Both the position numbers and the translations under genes were made by a program. From an uncultured delta proteobacterium (GTDB lineage: Bacteria > Desulfobacterota > BSN033 > UBA1163), in contig CAWHBU010000003.1 of the NCBI GenBank assembly GCA_963827685.1, positions 480,001 through 544,000 of the forward strand: 64,000 nucleotides of DNA, written 5' to 3'. This document shows, in pieces, positions 10,628-43,347 of this stretch (position 1 is the stretch's first letter; every line of letters starts with the position of its first letter). The notes under the pieces are model-generated. The model did no database searches. It saw nothing but the letters and a program-made list of their open reading frames with translations, and was not told the origin of the DNA.

Positions 10628-10840
10628 TTAACTTAAGCCTCCAGGTCCATCCTGAAATTCACGAGCTGATTGTGAATGATCAGTAAGCTCTGAGTTCCGA
10701 TTCCACGAATTCCGCAACCTTTTTCCTTACTCATTCCTCATTGACCTCTGAATAAGTACCCGGGGTCAAAGCTACACTTTACACTTCACAAAGTGCAGCA
10801 GATGCGAGAAGAAAACGGATCATGTGAGTAAATTGGGTTA

Positions 10841-10963
10841 GTCCATGAATGCAGGAATTTTTTACAGAAGATGTATTAAGGGTTACGCAAGCAGCAGGTT
10901 GAGTAAATCGAAATGAAGATATCACCGTCGAAAGATTGGAGAAGTGTTTGGGAAGAATTTTAT
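10841..10963 (+). repeat. Repeat D copy 1 (~120 bp, CCATGAATGCAGGAATTTTTTACAGAAGATGTATTAAGGGTTAC...)
   Basis: Near-identical to 13312-13473 (MITE-interrupted) and 17704-17826. Confidence 0.9.
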
Positions 10964-11009
10964 ACGGTCCAGGACTGATTACCGTGTTTCATATCAGGAC
11001 TTGGTTCAT

Positions 11010-13110: not shown

Positions 13111-13311
13111 GGGTTCGCTAATAATTAGTTGTTAGATAATAATTATTTTAAGAATATATTCAATAGATTATCTTATGAACCCATTGAAGAATTTATGGCA
13201 ATCCTCGGTTTTATTGATACAAAATTCCACATCGATTGACAAAAATGTCCCCGGTTCATTATTGCTCTTACAGCAGGAATCAGACCGGAGAGGGCTGTCG
13301 AGATGTGGGCA

Positions 13312-13473
13312 GTCCATGAATGCAGGAATTTTTTACAGAAGATGTATTAAGGGTTACTCAGGCAAGCCCCGTTAGAAATTCCAGTCGTTGCGACTCGAAA
13401 CCGAGCGGTCCATTATTTCTAACGGGGTAAATCAAAATGAAAATATCACCCTCAAAAGATCGGAAGTGTTTGG
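13312..13473 (+). repeat. Repeat D copy 2, interrupted by a MITE
   Basis: Homology to copy 1 resumes (TAAATCAAAATGAAAATATCACC) after the MITE. Confidence 0.85.
13367..13427. mobile_element. Short MITE, TIR CCCCGTTAGAAAT
   Basis: 13-bp perfect TIRs; absent from repeat D copies 1 and 3. Confidence 0.8.
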
Positions 13474-13646
13474 TTGATGACCTCATCCTCCGTGACCCCA
13501 ATCTCCCTAACAAAATTCTTTATCAGAGCTTGAAACAAAGTTCTTCTTACATTATTATAGTGTTTTGAAAGACATGACCTTTACACGGATGAAATCGGTG
13601 GTATCCGTTTTCACCGGGATGAATGAAATTGCAGTCTACAGGTGAA

Positions 13647-13763
13647 CCCCGTTAGAAATTCCAGTCGTTGCGACTCGAAACCGAGCGGGGCATCAAACCC
13701 CCGCCGGAATTATTCTGGGACCTAACCACGCTGCAGAGCAGCGGGGCAACATTTCTAACGGGG
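13647..13763. mobile_element. MITE, TIR CCCCGTTAGAAAT
   Basis: Same TIRs; shares the first ~42 bp with the 13367 copy; sits just upstream of the lemA RBS. Confidence 0.8.
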
Positions 13764-13779
13764 TCAACAGGAGAAAAAG

Positions 13780-16354: not shown

Positions 16355-16431
16355 TTCATTCTTCAGTGTTTTTCTGATCTAAAAACACTTTTTTGTCGCC
16401 GAACATATCTTCTTCTAAAACTCTTAGAAGT

Positions 16432-16635
16432 CTAACCAACAATCTTTACGTTTGAGGCTTGAGGGCCTTTAGGACCCTGTGTGGTTTCGAATTCAACCTC
16501 ATCCCCCTCTTTAAGGGACTTGAATCCCTCCCCTGTGATTGCCGAGTGGTGAACAAATACGTCCTTGCCGCTCTCCGGTGTAATAAATCCGAATCCCTTC
16601 TGATCGTTAAACCACTTCACTTTTCCTGTTGACAT
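16432..16635 (-). CDS. csp: Cold-shock protein (CspA family)
   Basis: [31 protein letters not shown]; GGAGG RBS. Confidence 0.97.
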
Positions 16636-16667
16636 AGTAACCTCCAAATAAAATGTTAGGGTTAAAA

Positions 16668-16826
16668 TAAAAAACCCGTCAAAGAGGGAAACTCACTCTT
16701 TGCGGGCTTCCTTTTTTCGAAGCCCGCTTTTCACCAGAGATTTTGTTCTCTGGCTCTCTTACCATTCCTTCCTTCCAGGTTTTACCCTTTCTGGTTTTCC
16801 TAATAAGACCTGCGGGTTCCGAAATC
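16668..16826 (-). ncRNA. Candidate cis-regulatory leader RNA of csp (copy U) with terminator/antiterminator
   Basis: Closing stem TTCGGAACCCGC/GCGGGCTTCGAA; alternative hairpin GCGGGCTTC-GAAAAAAG-GAAGCCCGC overlaps terminator CCCG.CAAAGAG...CTCTTTG.CGGG-T6; TTGCAA-N17-TACATA promoter upstream. Confidence 0.55.
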
Positions 16827-17675: not shown

Positions 17676-17703
17676 ACCGACCTTTCAACTTTCAGTAAAT
17701 GAG

Positions 17704-17852
17704 ATCCATGAATGCAGGAATTTTTTGCAGAAGATGTATTAAGGGTTACGCAAGCAGTAAGTTGAGAAAATCGAAATGAAGATATCGCCTTCGAAAGATT
17801 AGAGAAGTGTTTGGGAAAAATTTCATAAATTCCCGTACTGAACCTTTTTTTT
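17704..17852 (+). repeat. Repeat D copy 3 plus GTACTGAACC end
   Basis: Near-identical to 10841-10963. Confidence 0.85.
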
Positions 17853-18396: not shown

Positions 18397-18449
18397 GGGG
18401 TCAGACCTTGGTCTATTTTCTTAGCGTTTCCCTTTTCCACCAAATTCCG
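18397..18449 (+). repeat. Cassette-boundary repeat A, copy 1
   Basis: GGGGTCAGACCTTGGTCTATTTTCTTAGCGTTTCCCTTTTCCACCAAATTCCG. Confidence 0.9.
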
Positions 18450-18620
18450 GGACGGTGTCAGAGCTACGCCGTCAATAGCTTCTCCACCTCTCCTTGAACG
18501 TCAGTCCGGTCCATTTACCCCCTGGTTTATCTCCACAAGCTTATGATGCAAAGAATTTATGGAAATTCTCCACAGAAGTCAACGATTATTTTTCGCAGTG
18601 CGTAAAATATTGAGGTTTAA

Positions 18621-18736
18621 GTATATCCTCTCAGCGTTCACCTTTTCCACTAAATCCTGCTAACATCGAAGACCTGATCCCTTTTTCACTCCACACATCA
18701 CTAAAATCTTCTGTCAAATTTCAAGGAATGGGACCA
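18621..18736 (+). repeat. Repeat A copy 2 (long form)
   Basis: TCAGCGTTCACCTTTTCCACTAAATCCTGCTAACATCGAAGACCTGATCC...TCTTCTGTCAAATTTCAAGG; two further AAGACCTGATCC at about 18772 and 18792. Confidence 0.9.
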
Positions 18737-18992
18737 TATACTTCTCTTCTGTCGAATAAATGTATGATTGCAAGACCTGATCCTTCTGTTCCAAGACCTG
18801 ATCCTCCCGTTCTCCCTGCTGGTAGTATTTTTAGAATAAATGTAGGAATCTTCTTTGAGATGTTGTATAAAAGTCCAGGGATACTAATAAAAAAACAACT
18901 TGTAACCTATCCAAACATAAGAAAAGCGCTCTGATAAATTAACTGAAATTTTATAGGCCATTTATGAAAAATGTTTTGGTACCCTGGTTTAT

Positions 18993-20147: not shown

Positions 20148-20314
20148 ATAACCTTTAAGAGATTTCGGCTAATTCTTATTTCCAATTTTTTAAGAGAATG
20201 AAGATTATCTGGAGTAGAATTCCTGGAAGCGGTGACGGAAAGAGTTGAGGGGCTTTACGCGAAAAAGAGTTGGGATCTGATCTCAATTTTTAAAAGTACT
20301 TGTTGATTGTCGAG

Positions 20315-20464
20315 AGCCTGTTGGAAAACTCATTTTTTTCAGGCTGATCAAAAATGCCCAGATACAAGGCACCCGAAATCCTGAGGAATGAGGCGTACTT
20401 GAATGTACGCTGCAATGACGAAGGATGAGGGGAACGCGGCAGATGGGCGTTTTTCAACAGCCTG
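20315..20464. mobile_element. MITE with (A)GCCTGTTG(G)AAAA...TTTTCAACAGCCT ends
   Basis: Imperfect TIRs; flanks rejoin to AAGTACTTGTTGATTGTCGAGAGCTGACCC, similar to 22804-22835. Confidence 0.65.
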
Positions 20465-20545
20465 TTGAGAGCTGACCCTCAGTTCTCATTGCTAATTTTA
20501 GGTTTGACCTCGACCTTTCCAGAAGTTAAATCAGCAAGGGAACCG

Positions 20546-21268: not shown

Positions 21269-21332
21269 GATTCCTCCTTGTCTCTTACCGGAAATAGGGG
21301 AACGCAGGTCCTGAAACATTTCCCCCCAACAA

Positions 21333-21394
21333 GGCTAATTTCGCAGCGTTCACCTTTTCCACCAAATTCCGCTAACATTGAAGACCTGATCCTG
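21333..21394 (+). repeat. Repeat A copy 3
   Basis: GCAGCGTTCACCTTTTCCACCAAATTCCGCTAACATTGAAGACCTGATCCTG; ends 1 bp from the PIN toxin stop codon. Confidence 0.92.
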
Positions 21395-22655: not shown

Positions 22656-22736
22656 CGGTATATCTCCAAATTCATAGCTCTCCGTGTAGGCTCAATGTGG
22701 GTCTCTCACCCCATCTCGCAAGATCCGCCGTAGTCC

Positions 22737-22770
22737 TTTAGCGGTCACCTTTTCCACCAAATTCCGCCAA
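22737..22770 (+). repeat. Repeat A copy 4
   Basis: TTTAGCGGTCACCTTTTCCACCAAATTCCGCCAA. Confidence 0.85.
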
Positions 22771-22988
22771 GGATTTAATTACCGTGGGGCTTCACCCTTT
22801 GACAAGTAGTTGTTGATTGTTGGGGGACCTGACCCTTTCCCCTATTCGATGATTTCCTTTTTTCCATTGCTCCCTCCTTTCGGCCATTAACGTGCCCTAA
22901 GTAACGTCTGCTAATCCATTTACTCTGACCAGCCCTGTGTTAAGGGCTGACCCCAAGTCTTCCGGAAGGTCGCCTTCTTGATGAATGG

Positions 22989-24305
22989 CTACATTTCCGT
23001 AATCCACTTCTTTCCCTGTTTTTGAACTCCTCCTGCCATCGCTTTGAGAAATGAGGATCGGAGTATGTCACTCATAAGAATCGCCTTCACCGGTGGAAGT
23101 CTCAAGAATCCCCCTACAAAGCCTCGCATGAATTTCTGGGTGATACTTTGAGGATTATCGAATATCTGGTTCTGAAGTGTTCCCCTCTCCAGGCTTTGTA
23201 GAATGACCCGTTCAAACGTGGTTTCCGGATGGAGAACCCGTTTTTCCCGTTTTACCAGAGTGACCGCACCGGTACTGCAGCTTAAGGCACATACGCCGCA
23301 TCCGAGGCAAATAGAGGTATCGATAATAGCATCTTTTTTCTTCTTGGTTTGTGGGTGATCTATCGGAATCATCTGAATCGCATCGATCGGACAGGCCTTC
23401 GCACACTTTCCACAGCCGAGACAGGCGTCAGGATTGTTCTTGGCGAGAAAGTTGGAAGTGACCACCGTATTCGGGTAACCGAATTTGCTGATCCCCGCGA
23501 GAGCATTGCAGCAGTCCTTACAGCAGTGACAGATAAAGGTTACATTTCTTTTTATATTGTCTGCACAGAGCACGAGCTTCATCTCTACGGACTGTGCCAG
23601 GTTTTCCAGCATCTCGGATTTGGAAACCTCTTTTGCCAGTTTGTTCCTGATCAGGTAGTCTGCAGCGAAATTAAAAGAAGAACACTTTTCCAGAGGAATA
23701 TCACACTCCTTTTCACCTATGTGTAATTTTTCATGGCGGCATGAACATATCCCAATTGAAAACTTCTCAGAGGATTCAACAATGCCGGCAGCCTTTTCGT
23801 AATCCAGAACCTCTATATACTCCGACGCGTCAATAGCCTCCCAGTGAGGCAGCGCACGGATAACGGAGACCTTATCGCCTTTCTTCGCGTTCATTGCATA
23901 AAGTTCTCCATTGTTAGCGTTCAGATATTGGTGAAATAGATGCGCCAGTGCTTTGGAATCAACGCCCTCCCCTGTTCGCATCATACTAAACTCAAAAATA
24001 CCGATCATAATCGGCGAAGGCATGTAGTGATAGGCGTCATTGGCCCAAAAGTCGATCACGAGACCTTTTGAGCACAAACTCTCGAGGATCTTTTGAAGTT
24101 CTGAGCTTTCGTATTTTGTCACCTGCGCGATACGATTGAGGTCGGACATGCCGTACGGCATTTTCACAACCACATCCGCTTCCTTTTCGGAATAAAGACT
24201 TTTTAAGAGCTCGTAAAACGCCTCATTCCAGGGAGCCCTGAGAGGTAGATTATCGATCTTCGTTCCCAACCTTCGAAAAATCTCTTTACCGTCTGCATGT
24301 CCCAT
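22989..24305 (-). CDS. 4Fe-4S dicluster domain protein with N-terminal winged helix
   Basis: C.CR, ICHCCKDCC and two CxxCxxCxxxC motifs. Confidence 0.88.
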   Translation of the reverse strand: MGHADGKEIFRRLGTKIDNLPLRAPWNEAFYELLKSLYSEKEADVVVKMPYGMSDLNRIAQVTKYESSELQKILESLCSKGLVIDFWANDAYHYMPSPIMIGIFEFSMMRTGEGVDSKALAHLFHQYLNANNGELYAMNAKKGDKVSVIRALPHWEAIDASEYIEVLDYEKAAGIVESSEKFSIGICSCRHEKLHIGEKECDIPLEKCSSFNFAADYLIRNKLAKEVSKSEMLENLAQSVEMKLVLCADNIKRNVTFICHCCKDCCNALAGISKFGYPNTVVTSNFLAKNNPDACLGCGKCAKACPIDAIQMIPIDHPQTKKKKDAIIDTSICLGCGVCALSCSTGAVTLVKREKRVLHPETTFERVILQSLERGTLQNQIFDNPQSITQKFMRGFVGGFLRLPPVKAILMSDILRSSFLKAMAGGVQKQGKKWITEM

Positions 24306-24352
24306 ATCCAAGCTCCTTTCTCGCCGAGGTTCCTCTCATAATGCGGGCCAAC

Positions 24353-24413
24353 TCTATTTTCTTAGCGTTCACCTTTTCCAGCAAATTCTGCTGACATTTA
24401 AGATCTGAGCCTG
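24353..24413 (+). repeat. Repeat A copy 5
   Basis: TCTATTTTCTTAGCGTTCACCTTTTCCAGCAAATTCTGCTGACATTTAAGATCTGAGCCTG. Confidence 0.9.
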
Positions 24414-24487
24414 TGTTTTGGCACTTTAGATTTCAAAAAGTTATTTCAGGTTTCGAGGCCTAAGACTTTAACCCTTTTTCGAAAAAA

Positions 24488-25264
24488 TCAAACGGGGCTT
24501 TTCCATCTTTCGTAATTCCAATCAGACTTCATTTCATCTTGGTGGGACTTACAATACTCAATACCGGCATCGGTAAGAAAAATCTGCCCATTTTCAAGAT
24601 TAATATCTACCAACCCATGAAGCATCGCCAGTTTTGCACCTGAAGCATAGATTGGATAGTTAGGATTGAGAGATCCTACTGCAAAAGTCCATATTCTAGG
24701 GTAATATTGTTGCTGATGATTCCAAAGAGTTGATAAGACCTTTAATGCATCCTGTGTGATCTCCAGTTCCTTTTTGTTTTCTGGTTCCTTTTCCTCCATC
24801 GCCGTTATGATACCTTCCTCCCTCATGAAATCCTCTGTATTCACCTTTATTTTCTGCATGCGGGGAATCCCCAGATGCGTTTCAACTACCCTTTTCTCTT
24901 TATCAATGATTGGTTCCGGTTTTTGACCCACTCCCCAGAATACAAGATTTGTCTGTTGAGTAACTTGGTTCTTAATACTGATTGAAAGCATATCAGACCT
25001 CAAATTGATTATCTGCTCTTTCATTTCCGATTTGAGAGAATCGACTTCCTTTTTCAGTTTGATACCAAAAATGTCAATCTCCTGAAAGAGTGGCAGAAGA
25101 AGCAAACAAATCCAGATTACAAAGATAAAAACATCCACTGAAGTAGTTGATCCCAGTTTAAAAGCAGGGAAACCGAAAATTGCATAGATTAAACCAAGCG
25201 TAACTAATATTCCCCACCAAATATTTTTGAATTTAATATTTTTAAACTTATCCGATAATTTCAT
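24488..25264 (-). CDS. Hypothetical 2-TM protein; RBS displaced by IS630
   Basis: True start MKLSDKF; the longer ORF-track N-terminus is IS-derived. Confidence 0.65.
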   Translation of the reverse strand: MKLSDKFKNIKFKNIWWGILVTLGLIYAIFGFPAFKLGSTTSVDVFIFVIWICLLLLPLFQEIDIFGIKLKKEVDSLKSEMKEQIINLRSDMLSISIKNQVTQQTNLVFWGVGQKPEPIIDKEKRVVETHLGIPRMQKIKVNTEDFMREEGIITAMEEKEPENKKELEITQDALKVLSTLWNHQQQYYPRIWTFAVGSLNPNYPIYASGAKLAMLHGLVDINLENGQIFLTDAGIEYCKSHQDEMKSDWNYERWKSPV

Positions 25265-25267
25265 ATC

Positions 25268-26376
25268 TAATACAAACGCATTAAGTAATGTTACATAGCC
25301 TACGAATCTTTTGACAAGACCATGAGCGAGTTGTTTTACAAACGACAGACCAAAGATTATCAAGGTTTTCAAACCAACGGTTGGTGGTGGATTCATAGCG
25401 AACACTGCGCCAAATCCGTTCTTGCACGTTTAATCCCGGTTGATACGGGGGTAAATATTCGATATGGAGCCTCGGATGTTTTTTAAGAAATTGTTCGATG
25501 GGATCGCCTCTGTGCCAGCGGGCCCTGTCGACATAAAGCCAAATGGTATATTCTTTAAACCTTCCATAGAGGTGGCGCAAAAGTTTGAGAAACCCTTCTC
25601 TATCCCCCCGTTTTGTCTGAATCATGCCATAGCGTCCAAGCAAAGGATTGACCCACCCAGAGATATTCAAACGGATACGATGCTGGCTGGTCGTGGGAAT
25701 CTTAAGACGCTTTCCTTTTTTCGCCCAGCCCCGGCTAAGCCTGGGGTGCATCGTAAAGCCTGTCTCATCCTGGAATACAATTGTCTCTTTTGGCCCCAGG
25801 GACTCAAGTTTTTTTTAAAGCCCGCTGGAACTTTCGGGCTTCTTGGCTTTGTGCTTGAAGATAAGAATAACTCGCTCTCTTTAACCGATAACCCAAATGA
25901 TGCATCCAGCGTTGGGCTTGCCGCACCTTCAGGTTTATCCCGAAAGACCGTTTCAGATGAATCGCAACCGTTGGCCCATCCCATTGAGTCCGGTTTAAAC
26001 CAAATTCCCGCGGAGACTTCTCTAAGTGTCCCTCCAGCACCCTTTGAATCTTTGTCTCTAACCGTGGAGGCCTTCCCGATCTTGGCTTGGATTTTAAGAA
26101 CTCTAAGCCGTCTTTGTTCACCCCGTGAATCCATCGGCTTAAACTCATCCGGGTCAACCCTAACACCTCGGTTATCCATCCCGGACGTTGCCCTTCAAGC
26201 ACCAGGAGTAAGGCGGCTATCTTTATGCCTATCCAAGCCCCTGATATTTGTTCGGCTAATGCTAATAAACGCTCTTTATTGGCCTCTTTATGCTCTAAGA
26301 TTAATGTGGGATTTTTCATGCCCACATATTAACATAAATAAACTGTTATGTCACTTTATTTAGGACGTTTGTATTA
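25268..26376 (-). mobile_element. IS630-family element, two ORFs joined by a frameshift
   Basis: HTH ORF 25804-26325 ending at an A-run (ALKKT); DDE ORF with D.A.WH, LPPYQP.LN..E.IW; TIR TAATACAAACG...; TA at both ends. Confidence 0.9.
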
Positions 26377-26471
26377 ATATCCTCTTAGATTAGAATAAGT
26401 ATACAAAAACACGGCGTCACGCCTTGAAATGTGAATTAATTTAATTCACAAGTCTCAAAATGACCTAATAG

Positions 26472-26599
26472 AGGTCAACTCCATTTTCTTGCCGTTCACC
26501 TTTCCCACCAAATTCTACTAACATTGAAGACCTGATCCTGCATTCGCTCCACAGTCCAATAAAAACTTCTGTCAAATTTCAAGACCAGGCACCAGTTAC
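26472..26599 (+). repeat. Repeat A copy 6 (long form)
   Basis: CATTTTCTTGCCGTTCACCTTTCCCACCAAATTCTACTAACATTGAAGACCTGATCCTG...CTGTCAAATTTCAAGACCAGGCACC. Confidence 0.92.
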
Positions 26600-26677
26600 T
26601 TCCAGTTACTTTGAATGGCTATTTGTTTCAATGTCAATGGCGACAAACTCATTTGATTTTGTCATACTTTATGCGTT

Positions 26678-28881: not shown

Positions 28882-30687
28882 TTATCCTCCTTTTTTCTCA
28901 AGGGATACCGTGCGCTGCCGTCGCCAGCCAGTAACAGCCTTGTCGTATGGAGGGATTTTGACACGTTTACCTTTCCACCGTTTGGCTGGTTCAGGATCGT
29001 CGCTCTTCGGTCGTGGTTCGACAAGAGGCAGCCTTATCCGGCTTGGGATCTGGACCGCTTCGCCCAATACAAGGGCTTCACCTGTGCGCAATGCTGGAAG
29101 AAGATCTATCAAACCAGCAAGTGCATCAGGCACTGTGGACCTAACCCGGCCTTGATCGTCCGGGTTAGAAAGGCGAAGGGCAAAAAAAGTACCGCACTGG
29201 GAAAGTATAGTTTCATCAAGTTCGGATGGACGCTGACTCACAACAATGGCACCAACCCCATATTTTCTGCCTTCTTTTAGGACCCGACGTACGGATTTCC
29301 CCGCATACCCAGAGACGAATTGGCCCGATCCACCTTTAGGTAAATAAGAATGGGCCTCCTCATAAATGATGAGAAGTGGACGTTGCCTGCCGATCGAGGG
29401 TAAATCCCGTCCCCAGAACATGCATTCGAAAAGTACTCGTGTCACAACGCCAACAACGAGATCTGTTACCTCAGGAGGGACACCGCCAAGATCAAGAACG
29501 GTGATGGGGTCCGCATGATTGATCCACTCTGAAAGTAAATCGTTGAGGTCTTTTTTCACTCCGTCAAATTGCCCTGGATTTAGCAAAAAATCAAATCTTC
29601 TGTCCCTCAAGCGCCCCAGGACTTTGTTCAAGTATGATGCTAGTCCAACAGCCTTCTGGGTTTTGAATGGCGACGAAGCACCAGCTCCGGGTGGTTCAAA
29701 CTGAGGTGGAATCGCATCTTGTGCGCTTCCCGTCAGTTCCCTGCCATTCTTGTCCTTCTTGAATGCTATAGTGGTCCAATCGTCTTTCAGTCTGAGAGTA
29801 GCATGCTCTGCGGTATAGAATTCGTACCACATTGCTCTAAGGTCGAATGGAACTGGTGAATCAACTGTTATATCGTTTGTATTAATCGAACACGCCTTTA
29901 AATTTGCACAGGATCCGCGTTTGAGCTCAAATATGCGGTCTCTGAGTATTATGTCTTGCTGGCTTTCCGATGCTGTGCGTCTATCCACCAGGAACCAGCC
30001 AAGCTCATCAAAGGATAGAGCCCAGAATGGTATGAGTAAAGGATCCTTTGCGTCACCTATCGAGAAAACGCGCGCCTGCCCCTTAAGTGCGGCACCATAT
30101 TCCCCATGAGGATCGATCACCACCACCTGCGCGCTCGGGAAAACACCGCTGGTTATCGCTTTCAAGAAAGCAGCTACTGTATTAGATTTGCCGCTTCCAG
30201 TAGAACCAAGGATTGCCATATGTCTAGTCACGACTTTGTCCAGATCTATGGTTGCAGGCAGGCTTTCTGATGCGGCATGAGTTCCTATTTGTATCATAGA
30301 GGGAGAGAGCGAACCATATATTAGTGCGATATCCTCTTCCGTAACGACATGAACTTCGTCGTCTAGAGTTGGAAACACGCTTATACCACGTTGGAACCCC
30401 TCCTGACCATACGCCTCACCAACAAGTTGAACCTCTATCCACCTTTGCCCGGGTGGCGGAACAAACTCAAGTTCATCTGGTGGTGATTCCGAAGCTCCGA
30501 CCATTGAGACAACTCCGTATAAATTTAAAAAACCCAAGGGTATTCTAACAAATGAACCGACCTGCCCTAGCCTATAGACTCTTCCATGAATAATGGGGGA
30601 AACCGACATCTCAGATGAGATTCCAACAAAAACTTTGGCCCCCACTACACGGCGAACCGAACCTAGAAAGGTAGGCTGTGTCTTCAT
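28882..30687 (-). CDS. herA: HerA/FtsK-like ATPase (SIR2-HerA defence)
   Basis: N-terminal HAS barrel, RHMAILGSTGSGKS, IDPHGEY, EEAH, KEGRKYG, VSQRPSE. Confidence 0.92.
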   Translation of the reverse strand: MKTQPTFLGSVRRVVGAKVFVGISSEMSVSPIIHGRVYRLGQVGSFVRIPLGFLNLYGVVSMVGASESPPDELEFVPPPGQRWIEVQLVGEAYGQEGFQRGISVFPTLDDEVHVVTEEDIALIYGSLSPSMIQIGTHAASESLPATIDLDKVVTRHMAILGSTGSGKSNTVAAFLKAITSGVFPSAQVVVIDPHGEYGAALKGQARVFSIGDAKDPLLIPFWALSFDELGWFLVDRRTASESQQDIILRDRIFELKRGSCANLKACSINTNDITVDSPVPFDLRAMWYEFYTAEHATLRLKDDWTTIAFKKDKNGRELTGSAQDAIPPQFEPPGAGASSPFKTQKAVGLASYLNKVLGRLRDRRFDFLLNPGQFDGVKKDLNDLLSEWINHADPITVLDLGGVPPEVTDLVVGVVTRVLFECMFWGRDLPSIGRQRPLLIIYEEAHSYLPKGGSGQFVSGYAGKSVRRVLKEGRKYGVGAIVVSQRPSELDETILSQCGTFFALRLSNPDDQGRVRSTVPDALAGLIDLLPALRTGEALVLGEAVQIPSRIRLPLVEPRPKSDDPEPAKRWKGKRVKIPPYDKAVTGWRRQRTVSLEKKGG

Positions 30688-31928
30688 GTTTTTGAACCCC
30701 TTTGAATAGTCTCGGCAGACTCCTTGCTTATAGTGGTGGGAGAGACAGCAGCTTCCAGAACTGGACGGAACCCGATGAATAGCTCAAGAAAAGACGCAAA
30801 ATTGTTAAAGTCACCGAGAGTAAATTGTTTTCGGCTATCATCCCAGAAGGGCCAAATTTCTTCTTCTTTCTTTGCTCTGCTGGGTCCACCCCATGAGCCT
30901 ACAAGACCACCGATGCATGCCCTATCCGTACCATACACAGCAAAGTTTCGAAGTTCTTGGCCTAGCCGTATAAGATTCTCTTGTGGAGCAGAATGGCAGA
31001 ACACTGTGACGGCCAAATCGGGGTTTGAGCGAAGACCCTGAAAAATAATTTCATTGAGGTGTTGGTCACCGAAGCTATAACCAATTACAACCATAAGACA
31101 TGAGCTATAGGAAACAAACCTCCGGAGACGGTCTTGAAATGTAAGAAAAGGTAGTTTACGTGACTGTGTGTACTTCTCGCGGGATGGAAATATTACGAGT
31201 TCGCTCCCAACCGGAGTATTAGAACCAGAACTTCGAGATATCCTTGTCGGATTCCCATTTTGAGAATCAGAGATGTACCAATTAATAGATCCATGGAGTT
31301 TCCACAGCCGAGTCCAAGTTTTCGGTGGGTAGACAGATTGGGAATGCTTGGATGGCTCGGCTTCAACTGACTCAGGTACGAAGAACGGAGTGACGGACCC
31401 TATAAAGCCATCGAAAAAAGGTACAGAGAAGTTTTCCATCGACTTCTCTAATAAGAGGTCATAGTTTGTTGTGAAAAGCTCCACTGGCCAGTCACGATGA
31501 CTTCGAAGCTGTTGCAACCACTGTGCAAAAATGGCATGTGGTATCGGCTCTTGTGGGGAGGTATCATCTACGATGCGACGCATAGCTTGACAAATCTGTT
31601 TGTCGAGCTCTCTGGCAGCTTTAGCCCCAATGAGGCATCCGTACTGTCTATCTTCATTGTTTCCAAAAAGTTCACGGCAAATGCGAATATGGTCAAGAAT
31701 ATTCTCAACATTGGGATTCTTTATTCCCAACTCGGCTTTGACTTTCGAGAATTGTGTTTTGAATGGGTCGACAAGATGTCCCTCAACCCGTTCCGTTAAT
31801 TTTGTAATTCCAGGCAACCCAACTGCCATAGACGTGCCGGCGCCGAGGAAAAATGCTAATCTCCTTTCAGCAGGCGCTAGTTGCTCTCGTAGCTCATAAG
31901 CTTCGCGTAGCGGGTCATGAGAAGCCAT
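30684..31928 (-). CDS. SIR2-family NADase (SIR2_2)
   Basis: FFLGAGTS, FTTNYD, KLHGSINW, IGYSFGDQHLN; overlaps herA. Confidence 0.92.
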   Translation of the reverse strand: MASHDPLREAYELREQLAPAERRLAFFLGAGTSMAVGLPGITKLTERVEGHLVDPFKTQFSKVKAELGIKNPNVENILDHIRICRELFGNNEDRQYGCLIGAKAARELDKQICQAMRRIVDDTSPQEPIPHAIFAQWLQQLRSHRDWPVELFTTNYDLLLEKSMENFSVPFFDGFIGSVTPFFVPESVEAEPSKHSQSVYPPKTWTRLWKLHGSINWYISDSQNGNPTRISRSSGSNTPVGSELVIFPSREKYTQSRKLPFLTFQDRLRRFVSYSSCLMVVIGYSFGDQHLNEIIFQGLRSNPDLAVTVFCHSAPQENLIRLGQELRNFAVYGTDRACIGGLVGSWGGPSRAKKEEEIWPFWDDSRKQFTLGDFNNFASFLELFIGFRPVLEAAVSPTTISKESAETIQRGSKT

Positions 31929-32319
31929 TAGACAAAGACCTCCTTTTTCTATTGTCAAAATTCAAACCGGATTTATATTCCCAAAGGGACGAGTCCGTAG
32001 TTGAATTCTATCACTTATTTTGCCTTTCAGAAATCTCATCCACCCTCACCTCTTAATTAGTCTGGAGTACTTTCACTCACTGGGTCAGGCATTGCCAACA
32101 AGGTATTCTCACGAATTAATCCAACGCTTAAAAATAAAACCATCTCCTTTACTTCTCTTTCTACCCGATAGCCATCTTTCTAAAAATCTCTTTGTCCTTT
32201 GATTTACCTCCTCGATTTAGAGAGGATATCATAAAGCGATTCCAATCTAAGGGTAAACAATATTCTGGCACATCGGGGTAAACGATGTGTTGGCGCTTGG
32301 CAGATATTAATCATTAAAT

Positions 32320-34728
32320 TCATGCAAATTGCCAATCAAGCTCTTTTTTTCCGCACCGGCACTTAACTTTCTTGCCCACCTTATCGCCCAATTCTACAGA
32401 AACGTATTTCCTGCAATTCGGGCAGAAGAAAAGATCCTCGAATTCGTCTATGTCCTTCATAACCTGCTGAATGTCACCCTTGGATTGGAAGGGTGGGGAA
32501 TCATGAGAACTTTTAGCTGTGATTAGCGATAAAGTGACAAGCCTGTCCAGGATGGGAGCACCCTTAATGTTACTTTTTTCTCTGTTTAGCTTGCCTCGGA
32601 GCTCACTGAGCATTTCCCCTATCATCCTACGCTCATTAAGACCATCTGGCAAGTACTTCATCTTGACCTCAAGGTTGAATGAAATCTGCTTGAGTACGTG
32701 CTCCAGAAGTTTCCTCAGGTCGTTACCGACATCGAACTCATTTACCTTTACTTTGCGCTCAATCTTTTCTCTTATACCTACAATACTATCTCTAAACTGT
32801 ATACCATCATCTATGGACCAAGTCACATCGTTAAATAACCATCCTAAAGACTTCATCTCCGCATTAATAAGCTCGTACCAGAACTTCTCATGTGTAAAGA
32901 GCAATACTTGATAGTCCTTGAAATGGTCTTGCAGCAGTCTTAGTAAAGGGACCCTGTGGTCACTGTCAAAGCTTGAAATGACATCATCCAAGACAAAGAA
33001 CCTGTTCACCTTGTTGGAAAGCTTTACCGATGCCAAGAAGAGGCAAATGCCCAAACAGTGAAGATGGGACTCACTGAGATATTTGAGAGGAGGCTGTGAA
33101 TCCTTCCCATGGAAAGTTAACTTGAACTCGACACCCTCCTCACCAACAAGGTCAAACCGAATCTTTTCTATTCCCTCCTCTGTGTTCATCTCGCTGTAAA
33201 ACTTATCAACATCAGCAGAGATCGCATTAAGTGCTTTCTGCAGAATCTCCCCCTGAAGCTGTATGAACGAGTCCCTAATCTTGGTGACCGTATCTATCTG
33301 CGCTTCAAAGATATCAAGTTCTTTCGACAATACTTTATTGTCTTTGAAAATCCGATTCGCATTGCCAATAAGGTTAAATACCTGGAATTGAAGCCGTTGG
33401 CTTTCTGTCTCTGCCAGGGCAGTCATCTTCGTCTTTATCTTTGGAAGTAAACCGGCAATCTCGGTCTTCAGGTTACTAAACTGTTCCTCAAACAACTCAG
33501 AGTCCTTCTCAATGATTTCAAGCCGCTCAAATTTCCCTTCCACGTCCTTAATAACTTGATCGAGAGACGTCTGGGCTTTTGAAACCGTATCGTTGACTGC
33601 GTTAAAGTCAGCATCGTCTTCTATCTTGGCACGCGTCACCTCATCGAGTGCCTTTTTGATGCTCCTAAGGTTTAACAGGGCCAAGCTTTTCTTTGAATTC
33701 GCCTCTTGCACTTCTTTGTTGATTTCCTCAAGCTCCTGTAGCCTTTCAGCTATTTCATTGAGAACGCCTATGGAATCAATGCTACTAAGGCATAGGGGGC
33801 AGATGTTTTCACCAACTATCTTGTCCTGTATAACATCCTGCCCTTGCTCAAGAAGCTGCCTAAGACCTATCCTCCTGATTTTCTCCTTGTCTTTTAGCAG
33901 TTCAGCGTATGCCGTGAGAAAACCATCATAGTTTTCAGTCTTTTCAACGTCCTTTTTCAAGCTTTCAAGTGCTTGCTGCAAATCAGAGAGCTTTTGGCTT
34001 CTTTCAAGTTTGATCTTATCTGTCTTTACTTGGATTGTCTCTATACATGCATTAAGTGAAGCCTCATCAGTGACTACAATTCCAAGGTGTAAGGGCTTAA
34101 TCTGGGTGTTGACGATGAGATAAAGGTCTCCTTCGCTTTCTATCGTCTGGCCGATTTTGTCCATCAGGTAAGCATTGTTCTTTTCTATTTGGTCCCTTAC
34201 GCTCCTAAATTTTGAATTCTTTTCAAGAGAATTACAGGCCGATACGAGTGTGCTTCTTATATCACTAACATGGCGGTATCCAATTATGTCGAGTATCTGG
34301 GTGCGCTTTTCTCCCTTGGTGAGTAGCACAAACCTTAGTACATCCCCATACCTGAGGAAGAGCCGTTCTTTTTTGGACTGCTCAAGGTAATCGTTGAACT
34401 CTTGCGTGCCATTGCTGTATTTGCTACGGAATTTGGCATTCAGGGTCTTAATTGAATTAAGGCGGGTATCGCTGAAATCAATTGATAAAAGGATATCTTG
34501 ATTGTCAGGGAAGTGGGTGTTCCTCAGGCATTCCTCCTTGCAGTCCTCCCGCCAAAGGTGCTCTATCTTGTTGAAATAGAACCATTCAAGAGCATCTGTA
34601 ATCGTGCTCTTGCCACCACCGTTGTCTCCGTAAATCGCTACGGAGGCATGGCGATTGGTAAAGTCCATTTCGACAGGTAGTCTGGCTCCCCTGAACCCTT
34701 CAAGTTTAATCTTTCTTAGGCTCACCAT
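32320..34728 (-). CDS. SMC/Rad50-like ABC ATPase with zinc hook and C-terminal HEPN-like/Zn-ribbon region (RloC-like)
   Basis: GDNGGGKS Walker A, central CPLC, LSES signature, LDDVISSFD, TH; C-terminal LRKLLE...SSHD and CPNC/CRC. Confidence 0.75.
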   Translation of the reverse strand: MVSLRKIKLEGFRGARLPVEMDFTNRHASVAIYGDNGGGKSTITDALEWFYFNKIEHLWREDCKEECLRNTHFPDNQDILLSIDFSDTRLNSIKTLNAKFRSKYSNGTQEFNDYLEQSKKERLFLRYGDVLRFVLLTKGEKRTQILDIIGYRHVSDIRSTLVSACNSLEKNSKFRSVRDQIEKNNAYLMDKIGQTIESEGDLYLIVNTQIKPLHLGIVVTDEASLNACIETIQVKTDKIKLERSQKLSDLQQALESLKKDVEKTENYDGFLTAYAELLKDKEKIRRIGLRQLLEQGQDVIQDKIVGENICPLCLSSIDSIGVLNEIAERLQELEEINKEVQEANSKKSLALLNLRSIKKALDEVTRAKIEDDADFNAVNDTVSKAQTSLDQVIKDVEGKFERLEIIEKDSELFEEQFSNLKTEIAGLLPKIKTKMTALAETESQRLQFQVFNLIGNANRIFKDNKVLSKELDIFEAQIDTVTKIRDSFIQLQGEILQKALNAISADVDKFYSEMNTEEGIEKIRFDLVGEEGVEFKLTFHGKDSQPPLKYLSESHLHCLGICLFLASVKLSNKVNRFFVLDDVISSFDSDHRVPLLRLLQDHFKDYQVLLFTHEKFWYELINAEMKSLGWLFNDVTWSIDDGIQFRDSIVGIREKIERKVKVNEFDVGNDLRKLLEHVLKQISFNLEVKMKYLPDGLNERRMIGEMLSELRGKLNREKSNIKGAPILDRLVTLSLITAKSSHDSPPFQSKGDIQQVMKDIDEFEDLFFCPNCRKYVSVELGDKVGKKVKCRCGKKELDWQFA

Positions 34729-36270: not shown

Positions 36271-36581
36271 GTCGGCACCTCCTTAGATGATGCGATTGCT
36301 CAGGAGCAAACCTTTTATTCCAAAACATCTCCTGATTGCCCGCCGTTATTCCTGCGTTCATCTCAAAAAATGGTATGTGTCCCTATTTCAGTCAGTCTTT
36401 AAATGAATTGCTATTTCCTGTTTCAGGTATTTTATGTTTTGGTTTTCCGAGATTGGTCTCCCAAAACCAGCAACTTCCAGTGTCAGGTCTACACCTTTCA
36501 CAAAGTTTTATCTTTACACGCCAGTGTGTCAGGCCTCCAAACATGAATCAAGCGAAACCACTTCGGTAAAAGCCCTAATGC

Positions 36582-36626
36582 GGGTTAACTCTATTTTCTT
36601 AGGTTCTCCTTCTCCACCCAGTTCTG
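36582..36626 (+). repeat. Repeat A copy 9 (degenerate)
   Basis: GGGTTAACTCTATTTTCTTAGGTTCTCCTTCTCCACCCAGTTCTG. Confidence 0.75.
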
Positions 36627-36743
36627 GATATGCTCACTTCAAAAATCTGCCCCTAAATATTCGCATCTTCTTCTTAAACCCACCTGTCGGCAATTTGTCC
36701 AATGACACACCCTGACCCCACTTGCTCGACGAGGGTGGAATGT

Positions 36744-37514: not shown

Positions 37515-37566
37515 GGAATCCTCTCCAGAAAGAGGGCCGTAGGTTCTAAAACATTTTCACCTGACG

Positions 37567-37689
37567 AGGTCTACTTCTTACCGGTTACCTTTTTCACCAA
37601 ATTCCGCCAACATTGAAGACTTGATCCTGTATTCGCTCCACACTTCAACAAAATCTTCTGTCAAGTTTCAAGATCAGGAACCAGTTATT
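37567..37689 (+). repeat. Repeat A copy 10 (long form)
   Basis: AGGTCTACTTCTTACCGGTTACCTTTTTCACCAAATTCCGCCAACATTGAAGACTTGATCCTG...CTGTCAAGTTTCAAGATCAGGAACC. Confidence 0.9.
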
Positions 37690-37887
37690 CATGCCAATTA
37701 ATTTCTGATGTCAAGTTGTTTTAGAAGCGACGTCCCCATCTACTTTTGAAGAAAAAATACCTTTTACAACTTGAACGCTGTTTTCAGTGGGTTGTTTGAC
37801 TCTTCCTGAGCCAGAGATCGTCGATTGTGGAGCCTTTTAGGAGGTCGCAACTGGCCCAGCCATTCCTTACAAGGCAAGGGATCCACC

Positions 37888-40514: not shown

Positions 40515-40856
40515 TCAGGGGGATTCCTTACCTTTCCTTGTCTGGCGTGCTTTTTCCATCAACCAGTTGACGAGCGGTTTTAATTTCTCCGGCATGGCTT
40601 CCTCGCTCACTCTCACCGCGTACTGCCGGCCACTTTCTTCCAGCCTTAATTCGTACTGAAAGCGGTCAGGCTGGGGAGACCGCGACACGATCTTCCCGGG
40701 CAAATTAAAGAAGTCAGCTTCCTCAACCAGCTGGCGAAGCTTCAGAGCTTCATCTGGCGCAAGGTCTTTTTTATCAACAGCCGTTTTCATCGTTATGCCG
40801 GCAAAGCCACCGCTTCGTTCAATGGAGATCCGCAAGGTCTTTTCCTCCCCTGGCAT
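40515..40856 (-). CDS. Emfourin (protealysin inhibitor), copy 1
   Basis: RSGGFAG and PDRFQY motifs; coupled downstream of an M4 protease. Confidence 0.9.
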   Translation of the reverse strand: MPGEEKTLRISIERSGGFAGITMKTAVDKKDLAPDEALKLRQLVEEADFFNLPGKIVSRSPQPDRFQYELRLEESGRQYAVRVSEEAMPEKLKPLVNWLMEKARQTRKGKESP

Positions 40857-41899
40857 TAAGTTACCCCAACCGCTTTCCAGGCTTTCTGCACCGCTTTCAT
40901 CTCTTTGCTTCCATTACCGTAGAGATCCTTGGCAACACTGATGGTGGTAGACGCAGCACCTGCAAAATTCGACTTACTCCGCAGCCGATCCCGAAGAGCA
41001 ATGTACCAGATCTTTCCTGCCTTCGTCCAGGCATTACCACCGATCTCCATGGCCGCAAGATAGAAGGCATGGTTAGGAATGTCAGAGTTGATATGGACGC
41101 CGCCGTTATCCGAAGTGGTTTGCACGTAACCCTTCATCGTAGCCGGCTGCGGGTCCTTCCCAAGGACGGGATCATCATAGGCTGTCCCGGGCGCCTTCAT
41201 GGAGCGGAGGGCCTTTCCGTGAATTTTGGGCATTAGAAGACCCGCGCCGATCAGCCAGTCGGCTTTGGCCGCTGTTTGTTTGAGGGTCCGTTGTTTCACC
41301 AGAGAGCCGAAGACGTCCGACATGGACTCATTCAATGCCCCTGGCTGGTTGGAATAAGCAAGATTGGCTTCGTACTGGGTCACGCCGTGAGTCAACTCGT
41401 GGCCGATGACATCGATACATTTGGTGAAGCGAGCAAAGATCTCACCGTCTCCATCGCCATACACCATCTCACTGCCGTCCCAGAAGGCGTTGTCATAATT
41501 GACATCGTAATGGACATAGGAGACGATAGACATCCCCCGGTTGTCTATGGAGTTGCGCTGATAGATATCGTAGTAGAGGTCATAGGTGGCGCCTGCTCCA
41601 TCATAGGCTTCGTTGACCGCAACATCCTTTCTGGGGGGATCACCTTCTTTGCGAACCAGAGTGCCCGCAGGAGGCTGCCCGTCTTTGTGCTTGCAATCAT
41701 AGACAGTACGGGATTTATGGCCGACAGGCGCCGCTGACGGAAGGATGCCCAATGCATGGCGTTGCCCTCTGATAAAGCCAGCCGAAGTCAGGTTCCGGAG
41801 AGCCCAATCCCTCTGATGAGGCTTGCCGCGCTTAGCAATCTCTTCCAGCATGTACGGGGGGATGATAGAACGGATTCCTACATATCTGATCGGTCTCAT
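40856..41899 (-). CDS. Protealysin-like M4 metalloprotease, copy 1
   Basis: IIPPY propeptide, NAFW, HELTH, NESMSD; GVHINSD instead of GVHINSG. Confidence 0.93.
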   Translation of the reverse strand: MRPIRYVGIRSIIPPYMLEEIAKRGKPHQRDWALRNLTSAGFIRGQRHALGILPSAAPVGHKSRTVYDCKHKDGQPPAGTLVRKEGDPPRKDVAVNEAYDGAGATYDLYYDIYQRNSIDNRGMSIVSYVHYDVNYDNAFWDGSEMVYGDGDGEIFARFTKCIDVIGHELTHGVTQYEANLAYSNQPGALNESMSDVFGSLVKQRTLKQTAAKADWLIGAGLLMPKIHGKALRSMKAPGTAYDDPVLGKDPQPATMKGYVQTTSDNGGVHINSDIPNHAFYLAAMEIGGNAWTKAGKIWYIALRDRLRSKSNFAGAASTTISVAKDLYGNGSKEMKAVQKAWKAVGVT

Positions 41900-42008
41900 G
41901 ATCTTCTCCTTTTTGAAAGGAAATAAAGGTAATTACAGAATATCAAAAAGTATTACGTGTTAGAACTATTTTATTTTCGCTTCTGCTCAGTGCAGAGCCG
42001 TCGGTAGG

Positions 42009-42044
42009 AGGTTAAGTCTATTTTCTTATCGTTCACCTTTGCCA
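42009..42044 (+). repeat. Repeat A copy 12, interrupted by IS630
   Basis: GGTTAAGTCTATTTTCTTATCGTTCACCTTTGCCA|CTAG. Confidence 0.85.
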
Positions 42045-43168
42045 CTAGTATCTACTTGACATAATAAGCGTAATATGCTAACTTTCCTGTATTATGAGCA
42101 GGAAAGCAAAAGAAATCACGTTGGAGCCCGAGCAACGGGCTGAGTTGGATCGATTGGTTCGAACCCATACCACTCCCAAGCGTATGGCGGAGAGGGCGCA
42201 AATTATTCTCTGGGGTGCTGAAGGGCAGAGTAACACGGAGATTGCCAAAAGGCTGAGGACTCGTGTTGCACGCGTTTGCAAATGGCGTAGCCGTTTCGTC
42301 AGAGAAGGGTTGGCAGGTTTGCTTGATGAACCGCGCCCCGGGCAGCCACGTAAGTACACCGCAGAGACCGAACACACAATTCTGCGCAAGATCGATGAAG
42401 CTCCTCCGAAGGGATATGCCCAGTGGAACGGAAGGCTTCTGGGGGAGAGGACGAGCATCCCGGATTATGAAGTGTGGGCGGTGTTGCGCAAGTATGGGAT
42501 TAGCCTTCAGAGACGGCGCAGTTGGTGTATTTCGACGGACCCTGAATTTGCACGGAAGTCCGCTGATATTGTTGGGCTTTACCTGGATCCTCCTGAGAAC
42601 GCCATGGTGGTATGCATGGATGAGAAGCCAGCCATTCAGGCGTTGGAACGGGCTCAGGGGTGGCTTAAACTGCCCAATGGCAAGGCGCTGACGGGAGCCA
42701 ACCATGAGTATAGACGGCATGGAACGAGTACCCTCTTTGCAGCCTTGAATGTGGCCACGGGACAAGTGAAGGCGGGCCATTACGGCCGCCGTCGTCGCCG
42801 GGAGTTTCTGGATTTTATGAACGAGATCGTTGCCGAACATCCGGACGAGGAAATCCATGTGATTATGGACAATTTGAAGACTCATCGACCGAAGAGGGAT
42901 CATTGGATTAAACGCCATCCGAAGGTTCATTTTCATTTTACGCCCACACATGCTTCCTGGCTGAACCAGATCGAAATCTGGTTCAGTCTTCTGAGCCGCT
43001 ATGCCTTGAGGGGCGCCTCCTTTACAAGCGTCCGACAGTTGCGCCAGGCGATCGATGAGTTTATTTCCGTCCATAACGAAAAGGCAGCCCCGTTTGAATG
43101 GACCAAGCGTTATGTCAAATCAGTTCACCCTAAAAATAAGTACGCTTATTTATATAATTAGATACTAG
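42045..43168 (+). mobile_element. IS630-family element with single transposase (42094-43161)
   Basis: DEKP.IQA, Y.RHGT, IMDN..TH, TPTHASWLNQIE; TIR CTAGTATCTA...AATAAGCGTA at both ends. Confidence 0.93.
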
Positions 43169-43347
43169 ATTACATAGAAAATAACGTGTCCGTGTCACGT
43201 GTCCGTAAACCGTAATATTTTTTTGAGGATGACGAAGCCGTCATGAAACATTCCGTAAACATCAAAGTCTTGATCCCGAGATTTACTCTTATCTGCTCGA
43301 TGGGCGAGTGGTGCTCGATGGCACCTTTTTTCTGGATTAAGTCAGGA

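Follow-up and report, generated by a model that had tools for sequence, protein, structure and literature searches.

A putative junction site of an integron-like gene cassette array without an adjacent integrase in a Syntrophaceae-like Desulfobacterota lineage

The window analysed here is a stretch of 64,000 nucleotides from an uncultured delta proteobacterium living in sediment. It carries a repeat family of 13 copies, counted with the diverged ones and all in a single orientation, which spans positions 18403 to 44988. The genes between the copies lie nearly all on the minus strand and are mutually unrelated; they include PIN/MazE, a Fer4 protein, an RNase H-like/Cas4-like protein, SIR2 with HerA, an SMC-like ATPase, SnoaL, a CAAX protease, two protealysin-emfourin pairs and two IS630 copies. 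The 62 nucleotides flagged in an earlier sequence-only reading (21333–21394) belong to one copy of this family, spanning 21326–21394. Five of the copies, here called units, have a longer form of about 150 nt with an additional conserved module C. The variable island and the units, in window coordinates, are as follows.

16070–52465 (36.4 kb): variable island that contains the whole array; in G010, a genome of the same genus, the LemA-TPM / enoyl-CoA hydratase junction lacks it
18403–18451, minus strand: unit c18403, core and 3' arm with a degenerate 5' arm; cassette X follows towards lower coordinates
18601–18756, minus strand: unit c18613, full form (module C, 5' arm, core and 3' arm), nhmmer 138.5 bits
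21326–21394, minus strand: unit c21325, the flagged copy, with a perfect gene-sense 5' arm at 21370–21392, the core at 21337–21368 and 8/23 mismatches in the 3' arm
22720–22840, minus strand: unit c22720, a variant with a contiguous TCCTTGGCGG/CCGCTAAAGGA stem and an insert that shifts the outer 5' box by about 45 nt
24338–24461, minus strand: unit c24344, upstream of the Fer4 cassette common to three other genomes
26461–26613, minus strand: unit c26471, full form, nhmmer 147 bits
28275–28419, minus strand: unit c28276, full form, nhmmer 139.7 bits
35721–35820, minus strand: unit c35722, core and 3' arm, the 5' arm displaced by a 29-nt loop insert
36574–36658, minus strand: unit c36581, diverged core, nhmmer E 3.6e-5; junction compared with G010
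37559–37701, minus strand: unit c37560, full form, nhmmer 137.3 bits
40456–40520, minus strand: unit c40463, good 3' arm (2/23 mismatches) and degenerate 5' arm, downstream of emfourin-protealysin cassette copy 1
42007–43285, minus strand: unit c42008, long loop split by an IS630-family insertion, 5' arm at 43259–43285
44835–44988, minus strand: unit c44844, full form, the first unit of the array in gene direction

The junction at c18403 recurs in two other genomes, and c18613 has 2/23 mismatches in its 5' arm and 6/23 in its 3' arm. The insertion in c42008 (about 42047–43168) shows a TA duplication on direct reading and encodes a DDE_3 transposase. Matches to the 21-nt word that had been taken as a hairpin loop number 10 in the window at up to three mismatches, against 0.02 expected, and none of 100 shuffles reaches 10; the 11-nt outer-arm word is weak on its own, its 21 window matches comparing with 12.25 expected and being reached by 2 of 100 shuffles. 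At up to three mismatches, the core word finds solely this 27-kb locus (C3:498427-524868) in the whole 5.2-Mb assembly. The remaining 11 of the 22 genome-wide core matches have four mismatches each and are scattered over both strands.

Positions in the unit are numbered in gene direction, which is the minus strand of the window, with +1 at the C of CGCTAAG; the "loop" is the preceding 21 nt and the 5' arm the 23 nt before that. Read in this direction, a unit consists of an optional 42-nt module C, the 5' arm (GGATCAGGTCT-TCAATG-TTAGCG, or either of two alternative classes), a conserved core of about 32 nt (GAATTTGGTGGAAAAGGTGAA-CGCTAA-GAAAAT) and the 3' outer arm (AGACTTGACCCCCATTA). The core corresponds to the "loop", the inner 3' stem and the bubble strand of the hairpin proposed in the sequence-only reading. 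The consensus is 67 nt long, with 11 bp, a 6×6 spacer, 6 bp and the 21-nt loop, and this arrangement of an outer box, an unpaired spacer, an inner box and a terminal loop is attC-like, as had been proposed. Inserts of 27–85 nt are tolerated in the terminal loop with the displaced 5' arm kept, and c42008 keeps it despite the IS630 element too. Three unrelated 5'-arm classes occur (105, 49 and 11 of 221 units), each complementing the same 3' arm in its own register; 13 of 15 positions can pair in the second class, three of them as G-T. One copy has a two-sided change, TCCTTGGCGG/CCGCTAAAGGA.

The outer boxes are GGATCAGGTCT and AGACTTGACCC, and the position that aligns with the G of GTTRRRY is C in 61, T in 17, G in 11 and A in 10 of 99 units. 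On inspection of the sequence, RYYYAAC/GTTRRRY boxes are absent from the expected places, and the sole GTT/AAC words sit in the inner box, in the order opposite to that of classical sites. The same inspection found no internal dyad in the core such as simple tyrosine or serine recombinase sites have, no internal dyad symmetry in either duplex arm of the folded 11-6-6 geometry, and no evident dif-like arms. A mini-ORF, MLAEFGGKGER, and the other frames through the unit were considered and rejected, as they show no conservation across arm classes.

A metagenome scan, in which long contigs were covered to 3 kb around the arrays, gave at least 141 loci with the unit pattern, and nhmmer with a model of five full copies gave at least 290 matches that reduce to at least 223 distinct units. 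As an ascertainment caveat, 137 of the 223 units were retrieved by a pattern covering -13 to +12, and conservation was checked apart in 32 genome-derived units and in 54 units not matching the retrieval pattern. In these unbiased sets it is 0.78–1.0 from -20 to +12, that is, over the "loop" and the 3' inner half, and 0.3–0.75 in the 5' arm, where the inner stem reaches 0.5–0.75 against 0.84–0.97 for its 3' partner. A structure-recognised site had been expected to conserve its paired positions preferentially in a larger alignment; it is the "loop" and the 3' inner half that are best kept instead, and the "loop" is far from passive, being the best conserved part of the unit.

The two arms quoted in the sequence-only reading were indeed a composite, with no scored window copy containing both. 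The right arm, as read on the plus strand, is present with at most two mismatches in 4/12 scored copies and the plus-strand left arm with at most three in 4/12, and both are good in 0/12; the flagged copy itself combines a perfect right arm (0/23 mismatches, plus strand) with a poor left arm (8/23). This scoring took in 12 of the 13 window copies, as c36581 had diverged too far to pass the filter, and the further row at 48856 is a chance match. A MAFFT alignment of the 13 copies misplaces those with loop inserts, and anchored ungapped columns were used instead.

Each unit directly follows the stop codon of one cassette and precedes the 5' leader of the one behind it. The units lie on a single strand in 133/133 loci, at a median spacing of 1190 nt (IQR 615–1840, n=89), and the ORFs of at least 150 aa between them are co-oriented with the units in 67 cases and opposite in one. 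The 242 ORFs of at least 150 aa in array loci can be grouped into 199 families, the Fer4 protein alone being frequent (10 times). Defence-like matches among 117 array ORFs (Pfam, E<=1e-8) are TIR, SIR2-HerA, Mrr, REase-ARP, an AbiEii-like ATPase, nSTAND3, HEPN, patatin and reverse transcriptase. The content of the array is rich in toxin-antitoxin and defence genes, and gene content and geometry are those of an integron cassette array.

The unit was found in 11/14 genomes of the same genus, in 3/10 family members from other genera, two of these with weak matches, and in 0/16 genomes outside the family, and exact-pattern matches occur in uncultured Syntrophaceae, Syntrophorhabdus, Deltaproteobacteria and Thermodesulfobacteriota MAGs. 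The Fer4 cassette (window 22989–24337) recurs in G010, G011 and G015 at 85–86% identity, with differing neighbours. The near-complete genome G010 has an 11-unit array with housekeeping genes on its flanks and an integrase only as fragments; its CAAX and Fer4 cassettes are joined directly, and the source genome has 12 kb more between the corresponding units. The array ends in G010 and G071 lie near DUF4124 and aldehyde ferredoxin oxidoreductase genes, which suggests an older common attachment region. G010 also carries a degenerate, core-only copy directly behind the DUF4124 stop codon, ahead of cassette X.

Comparison of units that have one neighbouring cassette in common shows how the two arms are inherited. 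The 44 unit pairs with only the downstream cassette in common agree at +14, +15 and +17 to +40 (0.75–1.0 against a background of 0.3–0.55) and show no agreement in the 5' arm, and in the nine pairs with only the upstream side in common agreement extends up to about +12. Among 221 units, the 5' arm and the first loop bases are linked internally (mean Z 2–14) with a Z of about 0 to the 3' outer block, while positions +14 to +31 are linked among themselves (Z 2–6) with a Z of about 0 to the 5' arm. Near-identical pairs give the same picture: the differences cluster at -44 to -10 where only the downstream side is in common (n=11), and clustered differences begin at +13, +13, +15 and +16 where only the upstream side is (n=4). 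The upstream cassette is thus shown to pass on the 5' arm and the downstream cassette the 3' outer arm, every unit combining arms of two different cassettes. That most copies are hybrid sites left after strand exchange, as the sequence-only reading had it, agrees with arms that assort independently, each with its own neighbouring cassette. The repeat is very likely a recombination joint.

Taken together, the linkage blocks and the differences between near-identical pairs place the exchange between -13 and +12, in the conserved core on the 3' side of the palindrome; the homology endpoints, which the earlier reading had proposed to map in search of a common cut point, are thus non-random. The interval of about 25 nt cannot be narrowed further because the core hardly varies. 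Its right edge falls where the 3' bubble strand (GAAAAT) meets the outer box (AGAC...). This is the point at which a cut would be expected from an attC-like mechanism, and the interval also holds the dyad centre, which could equally be the exchange point. Plain homologous recombination within the roughly 32 nt of identity may account for some of the events. A reading of the outer 3' arm as n|TTGACC, in analogy to G|TTRRRY, was ruled out by the near-identical pairs, in which +13 to +16 follow the downstream cassette. The public runs listed for this DNA are 20 DNA runs and no RNA run. In Logan contigs of four of the DNA runs, joints were seen only within units, with sides of less than 35 nt that reflect repeat cross-mapping, and there was no evidence of excision.

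The folding of the unit was analysed in 99 standard-spacing units from all sources. The proposed 11+6 bp structure has 75.0% of its cells paired in register, against 28–45% when slid by one to three columns, and the consensus palindrome is therefore real; in a separate count, pairing was 83% in the inner box and 70% in the outer box. When the 3' partners were shuffled among sequences, 74.9% were paired, with 184/500 shuffles as high, and covariation between the arms is absent (score 0.204 against 0.202 shuffled, 213/500, n=99). The ssDNA minimum energy of the 67-nt units averages -2.8 (sense) and -2.0 (antisense) kcal/mol, against -3.7 kcal/mol for dinucleotide shuffles (z +0.58), and both stems are present in the minimum-energy fold of 12/99 units. 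For a classical attC from the same genus the corresponding values are -17.6 kcal/mol and z -6. As ssDNA, the flagged copy gives -1.2 (plus) and -1.6 (minus) kcal/mol, with z of +1.4 and +1.7 and the proposed stems missing; among the window copies folded, only c44844 adopts the two-box hairpin as its ssDNA structure of minimum energy (-5.8/-6.6 kcal/mol, z about -2.3). The two-box fold claimed for the repeat thus holds for the consensus and fails for the flagged copy and most individual units, and the claim that the site is recognised by its structure finds no backing in covariation or in an ssDNA energy better than that of shuffles.

Other pairings were tried and rejected. If the 5' arm is paired with the 3' arm of the previous unit, the one that opens the same cassette and that an integron model would favour, 5.32 of 8 positions pair, against 5.34 for random partners; the value for adjacent arms is 5.18/8 against the same 5.34. 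Whole-unit (145-nt) ssDNA folds are weak and differ from copy to copy, and the terminal TAA.TGG / CCATTA inverted repeats of the full form, considered as an R box, are not recovered by folding. The two-box palindrome is real in the consensus and is not supported as a selected fold. The hairpin is kept alive by the retained displaced 5' arm, by the three complementing arm classes, and by changes that keep wobble pairs together with better folding of the sense strand. The commonest 5'-arm changes preserve a sense-strand G-U (G-T) wobble (A/G 48/49, C/T 63/32), with wobble-breaking transitions in 5–21 of 99 units, and in 79/99 units folding is better for the sense than for the antisense strand. 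Use of the unit as a folded single strand is possible rather than probable.

No integrase or Y1 transposase gene was found in the window, and a tblastn search with an IntI query found no integron integrase in the 141 array loci and the window. Other tyrosine recombinases, including Xer-like genes, were likewise absent by tblastn from the 141 array loci (474 kb) and from 100 kb around the G010 array; nine queries were used, one of which (from L047) is an overlapping 227-aa frame and not IntI. Recombinase and transposase families had 0 matches among the 117 array ORFs (Pfam, E<=1e-8). Conversely, no units were detected at E<=0.1 in 33 integrase loci (158.9 kb). Integron integrases score above the curated cut-off in 21/55 genomes of the family. 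The source genome has a single strong TIGR02249 match, a C-terminal fragment of 141 aa that lies beside a Phd/ParE pair at a distance of 258 kb from the array; the integrase fragments of this genome and of G010 are not syntenic and have 59 nt in common, so that they offer no dating argument.

Where integrases are present in the family, classical sites accompany them. GCCTAAC...GTTAGCC sites adjoin intI in G049, a 58-nt GCCTAAC...GTTAGGC site lies 2.8 kb from intI in the same-genus G013, and the integrase contig of G011 breaks at the GTTAGGC core of an attI-like stretch. G071 has a classical integron (intI and classical attC) on contig C24, with the same integrase matches as G049, and a four-unit array on C27, a contig without tyrosine-recombinase matches at E<=1e-15. 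A heuristic search found no classical attC in the 474 kb of array loci; this zero is weak because the heuristic is insensitive, recovering one site in L100 against at least four classical ones. We think that a site-specific recombinase encoded elsewhere, most likely a tyrosine recombinase, is responsible. That this enzyme is an integron integrase acting in trans is conceivable but somewhat unlikely.

The unit could also be read as a duplex, att-type core site for a non-integron recombinase encoded elsewhere, with the core of about 32 nt as the exchange region, the arms as protein-binding sites and the symmetry reflecting dimer binding. Such a site would agree with a core that is best conserved, with a 5' inner stem well below its 3' partner (0.5–0.75 against 0.84–0.97), with an exchange that maps within the core, and with neither covariation nor excess folding energy. 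It would also agree with the classical integrons and classical sites at other loci of the family, even in the same genome (G071, C24 against C27), and with the finding that units and integrases never co-localise in the 141 array loci and the window or in the 33 integrase loci. Yet the 27–85 nt inserts between the 5' arm and the core would wreck a fixed spacing, and the long-loop units retain their 5' arm while being joined to at least 10 different downstream cassettes. All three classes of 5' arm are complementary to one and the same 3' arm, an internal dyad is missing from the core, and no candidate enzyme was found in the loci searched. We regard the duplex site as unlikely.

It is improbable that the repeat is a transcribed RNA element in the spacers of a polycistronic row, such as a processing, stability or protein-binding hairpin, with reshuffling as a by-product of homologous recombination. 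The strand bias in folding fits this explanation, and with RNA parameters it becomes -12.5 kcal/mol (z -0.82) for the sense against -6.7 (z -0.2) for the antisense strand; the wobble-keeping 5'-arm changes, the second arm class with its three G-T pairs and the conserved terminal and internal loops fit as well. The z-scores are weak, covariation is absent, and promoter-like sites (31 against 31.0 expected) and terminator-like sites (19 against 20.1) occur at chance level. No Rfam family matches the units at E<=1 in a search of the whole window with 4227 families; elsewhere in the window this search gave a sub-threshold cspA-like match at 16381–16702 and a chance NRON match. An RNA element would, moreover, leave unexplained the roughly 200 unrelated gene families in one orientation with a unit each. 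The alternative raised in the sequence-only reading, an HUH Y1 transposase (IS200/IS605 type) that recognises the hairpins as element ends, fares worst. The substrates of Y1 enzymes are imperfect ssDNA hairpins, with cleavage a few bases beyond the foot, and the genome has 25 Y1 transposase family matches, 21 of them at E<=2.9e-40. The IS200-like element, present in 21 copies, is 545 bp long and has unrelated ends with GC-rich 9-bp stems, 3-nt loops and energies of -13 to -23 kcal/mol, having only 7–8-nt chance words (E>1) in common with the unit. There is no Y1 gene in the window or among the 117 array ORFs, the units are restricted to one locus whereas the IS copies are dispersed, and the exchange lies in the core and not outside a hairpin foot. 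The Y1 reading is close to refuted and highly improbable.

The nearest known relatives of the array are the integron-derived ones. Sites of the attC type are described as two inverted regions around a variable centre, 57–141 nt long (PMC3458562), the exchange in integrons as falling between the first and second base of GTTRRRY (PMC8876359), and 95% of CALINs as not being near a recognisable intI pseudogene (PMC4889954, Cury et al. 2016). The array resembles CALINs in its co-oriented, mostly single-gene and unrelated cassettes, each with a site of two inverted regions, in its chimeric sites, in an integrase that is not nearby but elsewhere in the genome or lineage, and in an exchange on the 3' side of the palindrome. 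The window has 13 sites with 67/68 ORFs co-oriented and no intI in the arrays, and in length the 67-nt consensus falls within the attC range, the full form with module C having about 150 nt. The cassettes are larger here than in CALINs, with a median spacing of 1.2 kb and up to 7.4 kb with several genes in the window. An intI with attI, which would make a complete integron, does not lie beside the array.

The unit differs from attC in several respects. It has neither the RYYYAAC/GTTRRRY core nor extrahelical inner-box bases, the inner box of the consensus being a perfect 6 bp; its mean energies of -2.8/-2.0 kcal/mol compare with -17.6 for the same-genus classical attC; its terminal loop is the most conserved part; and about 17 nt of the unit, not 6, move with the next cassette. 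The sequence from +13 onward already travels with the downstream cassette. The site is thus attC-like in layout and yet no classical attC, being set apart by box sequence and folding.

Sedentary chromosomal integrons, such as that with the Vibrio cholerae repeats, begin with an attI next to intI, and their strongly folding sites retain the classical boxes. The array is like them in its lineage-specific, near-alike sites along a long chromosomal array and in its toxin-antitoxin and defence cassettes, but both the attI/intI start and the classical, strongly folding sites are missing here. The CTX phage genome integrates at dif by means of its attP(+), which is folded as a single strand and used by XerCD. 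It resembles the unit in forming a pseudo-duplex from two inverted arms of one strand, with an unpaired centre between recombinase-binding boxes; in contrast, the present case is a cassette array, with no evident dif-like arms and no Xer-like gene near the arrays searched. Xer/dif-type sites consist of two 11-bp arms around a 6-bp centre, and an enzyme of this kind may still act on the unit in trans. IS200/IS605 elements have in common with the unit the use of imperfect one-strand hairpins as recognition elements. Their hairpins are of other sequence and strength, and the elements are dispersed with their own transposase and cleaved outside the hairpin, whereas the units, with unrelated ends, sit at one locus and have no tnpA in the arrays. 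The repeat is not described in the available portions of the literature on attC and integrons of Desulfobacterota, on CALINs and non-canonical gene cassettes, or on Syntrophales integrons (including PMC4889954, PMC3458562, PMC8876359 and PMC9668308).

In summary, the repeat is probably the junction site of an integron-like cassette array without an adjacent integrase, specific to a Syntrophaceae-like Desulfobacterota lineage. A site-specific recombinase whose gene lies away from the array would excise and insert the cassettes, reading the core by its sequence. The two inverted boxes may serve as an attC-like pseudo-duplex, made of an 11-bp box, a 6-nt unpaired spacer and a 6-bp box, and, as in integrons, strands would be exchanged on the 3' side, where the outer box has its inner edge. 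More tentatively, we propose that this may be a second, IntI-independent cassette-capture system that exists alongside classical integrons, both being present in G071, with its own recombinase and its own core site of about 32 nt, set in a two-box palindrome with each half from a different cassette, and that Syntrophaceae-like anaerobes of sediments and wetlands may use it to build up a store of accessory and anti-phage genes.

The textbook example of single-gene capture is the integron, which is defined by IntI and folded attC sites. The array described here obeys integron rules, with one orientation, a site per cassette, chimeric sites, a diversity of genes and many defence genes, and yet its site fails the attC criteria of sequence and folding and was never beside an integrase in the loci searched, in a lineage that has ordinary integrons too. 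Should another enzyme be at work, cassette capture evolved more than once, and a reservoir of mobile defence genes would escape mining tools built on attC models. Should it be IntI, this enzyme accepts far more substrates than the GTTRRRY/hairpin rule implies. Either way, the site is now defined by a core, three classes of 5' arm and an interval of about 25 nt for the exchange.

The island in this region is absent from G010, a genome of the same genus with an 11-unit array, in which the gap between the LemA-TPM and enoyl-CoA hydratase genes is 7 nt. A sub-threshold match to an RNA thermoregulator sits at the island edge.

16070-52465: 36.4-kb island, missing from G010
16381-16702, minus strand: cspA thermoregulator, Rfam match below threshold (38.4 bits vs a gathering score of 78)

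Two IS630 copies and a duplicated peptidase-inhibitor cassette are found within the array, and tandem repeats lie just upstream of its first unit.

24488-26363: second IS630 copy, broken
40515-41899 and 43348-44780: protealysin (M4 peptidase) and emfourin inhibitor cassette, two copies
42047-43168: IS630-family element, DDE_3 transposase of 355 aa
45442-45788: tandem 234-nt repeats, 94-100% identical, within overlapping ORFs

The IS630-family element at 42047-43168 has inserted into the loop of one junction repeat, unit c42008, with duplication of the TA target. In four metagenome runs, the contigs that match window 25268-26376 have very high depth. The protealysin-emfourin copies share 96% identity over 300 nt at the emfourin end; in the unit downstream of the second copy, the loop is cut after AAAAGGTG and is followed by 44 unrelated nt.

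Other short repeats also occur in the window.

20313-20465: short element of ~150 nt
10840-10978, 13311-13413, 13639-13768 and 17703-17841: second repeat family, ~55-135 nt

In three of the four metagenome runs the short element is covered thousands of times over, with numerous loose ends at 20313/20333 and 20464-20466, and its match in G010 is 90%; it resembles a dispersed repeat of MITE-like type. The 13641-13768 stretch of the second family is present in many scattered copies in related genomes, and this family has no relation to the cassette unit.

Beyond the window, the comparison genomes and the source genome itself yielded three further features.

G010 C1:1925314-1925345 (L242): degenerate unit copy, core only (GGGAAAGGGAGGCGGTAAGAAAACAGAC)
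Source genome C3:782919-783275 (L001): truncated integron integrase (TIGR02249 positions 197-315, 191 bits)
L047 1-81, L248 1501-1581 and L246 ~1295-1396: attI-like stretch of 81 nt, core GCCTAAC (reverse complement GTTAGGC)

The core-only copy, possibly a remnant or docking site, is immediately preceded by a DUF4124 stop codon and followed by the start of the cassette that comes next after unit c18403 in the window. The truncated integrase adjoins a Phd/YefM-ParE pair, with ligA and a rarA-like gene on either side; integron integrases of this lineage's family carry an N-terminal extension of ~110 aa and measure 432-460 aa in whole. One copy of the attI-like stretch begins the G011 integrase contig, and further copies lie within another G011 contig and in G001.

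Restriction and defence genes complete the inventory.

59898-63810: SacI-like restriction endonuclease and D12-class adenine methyltransferase, then a Mutator-family (IS256-like) transposase
28882-34728: multi-gene interval of 7.4 kb between two units, with SIR2-like and HerA-like genes and an SMC/AAA_15-type ATPase

The SIR2-like and HerA-like genes and the 802-aa ATPase are probably cassette-borne anti-phage systems.
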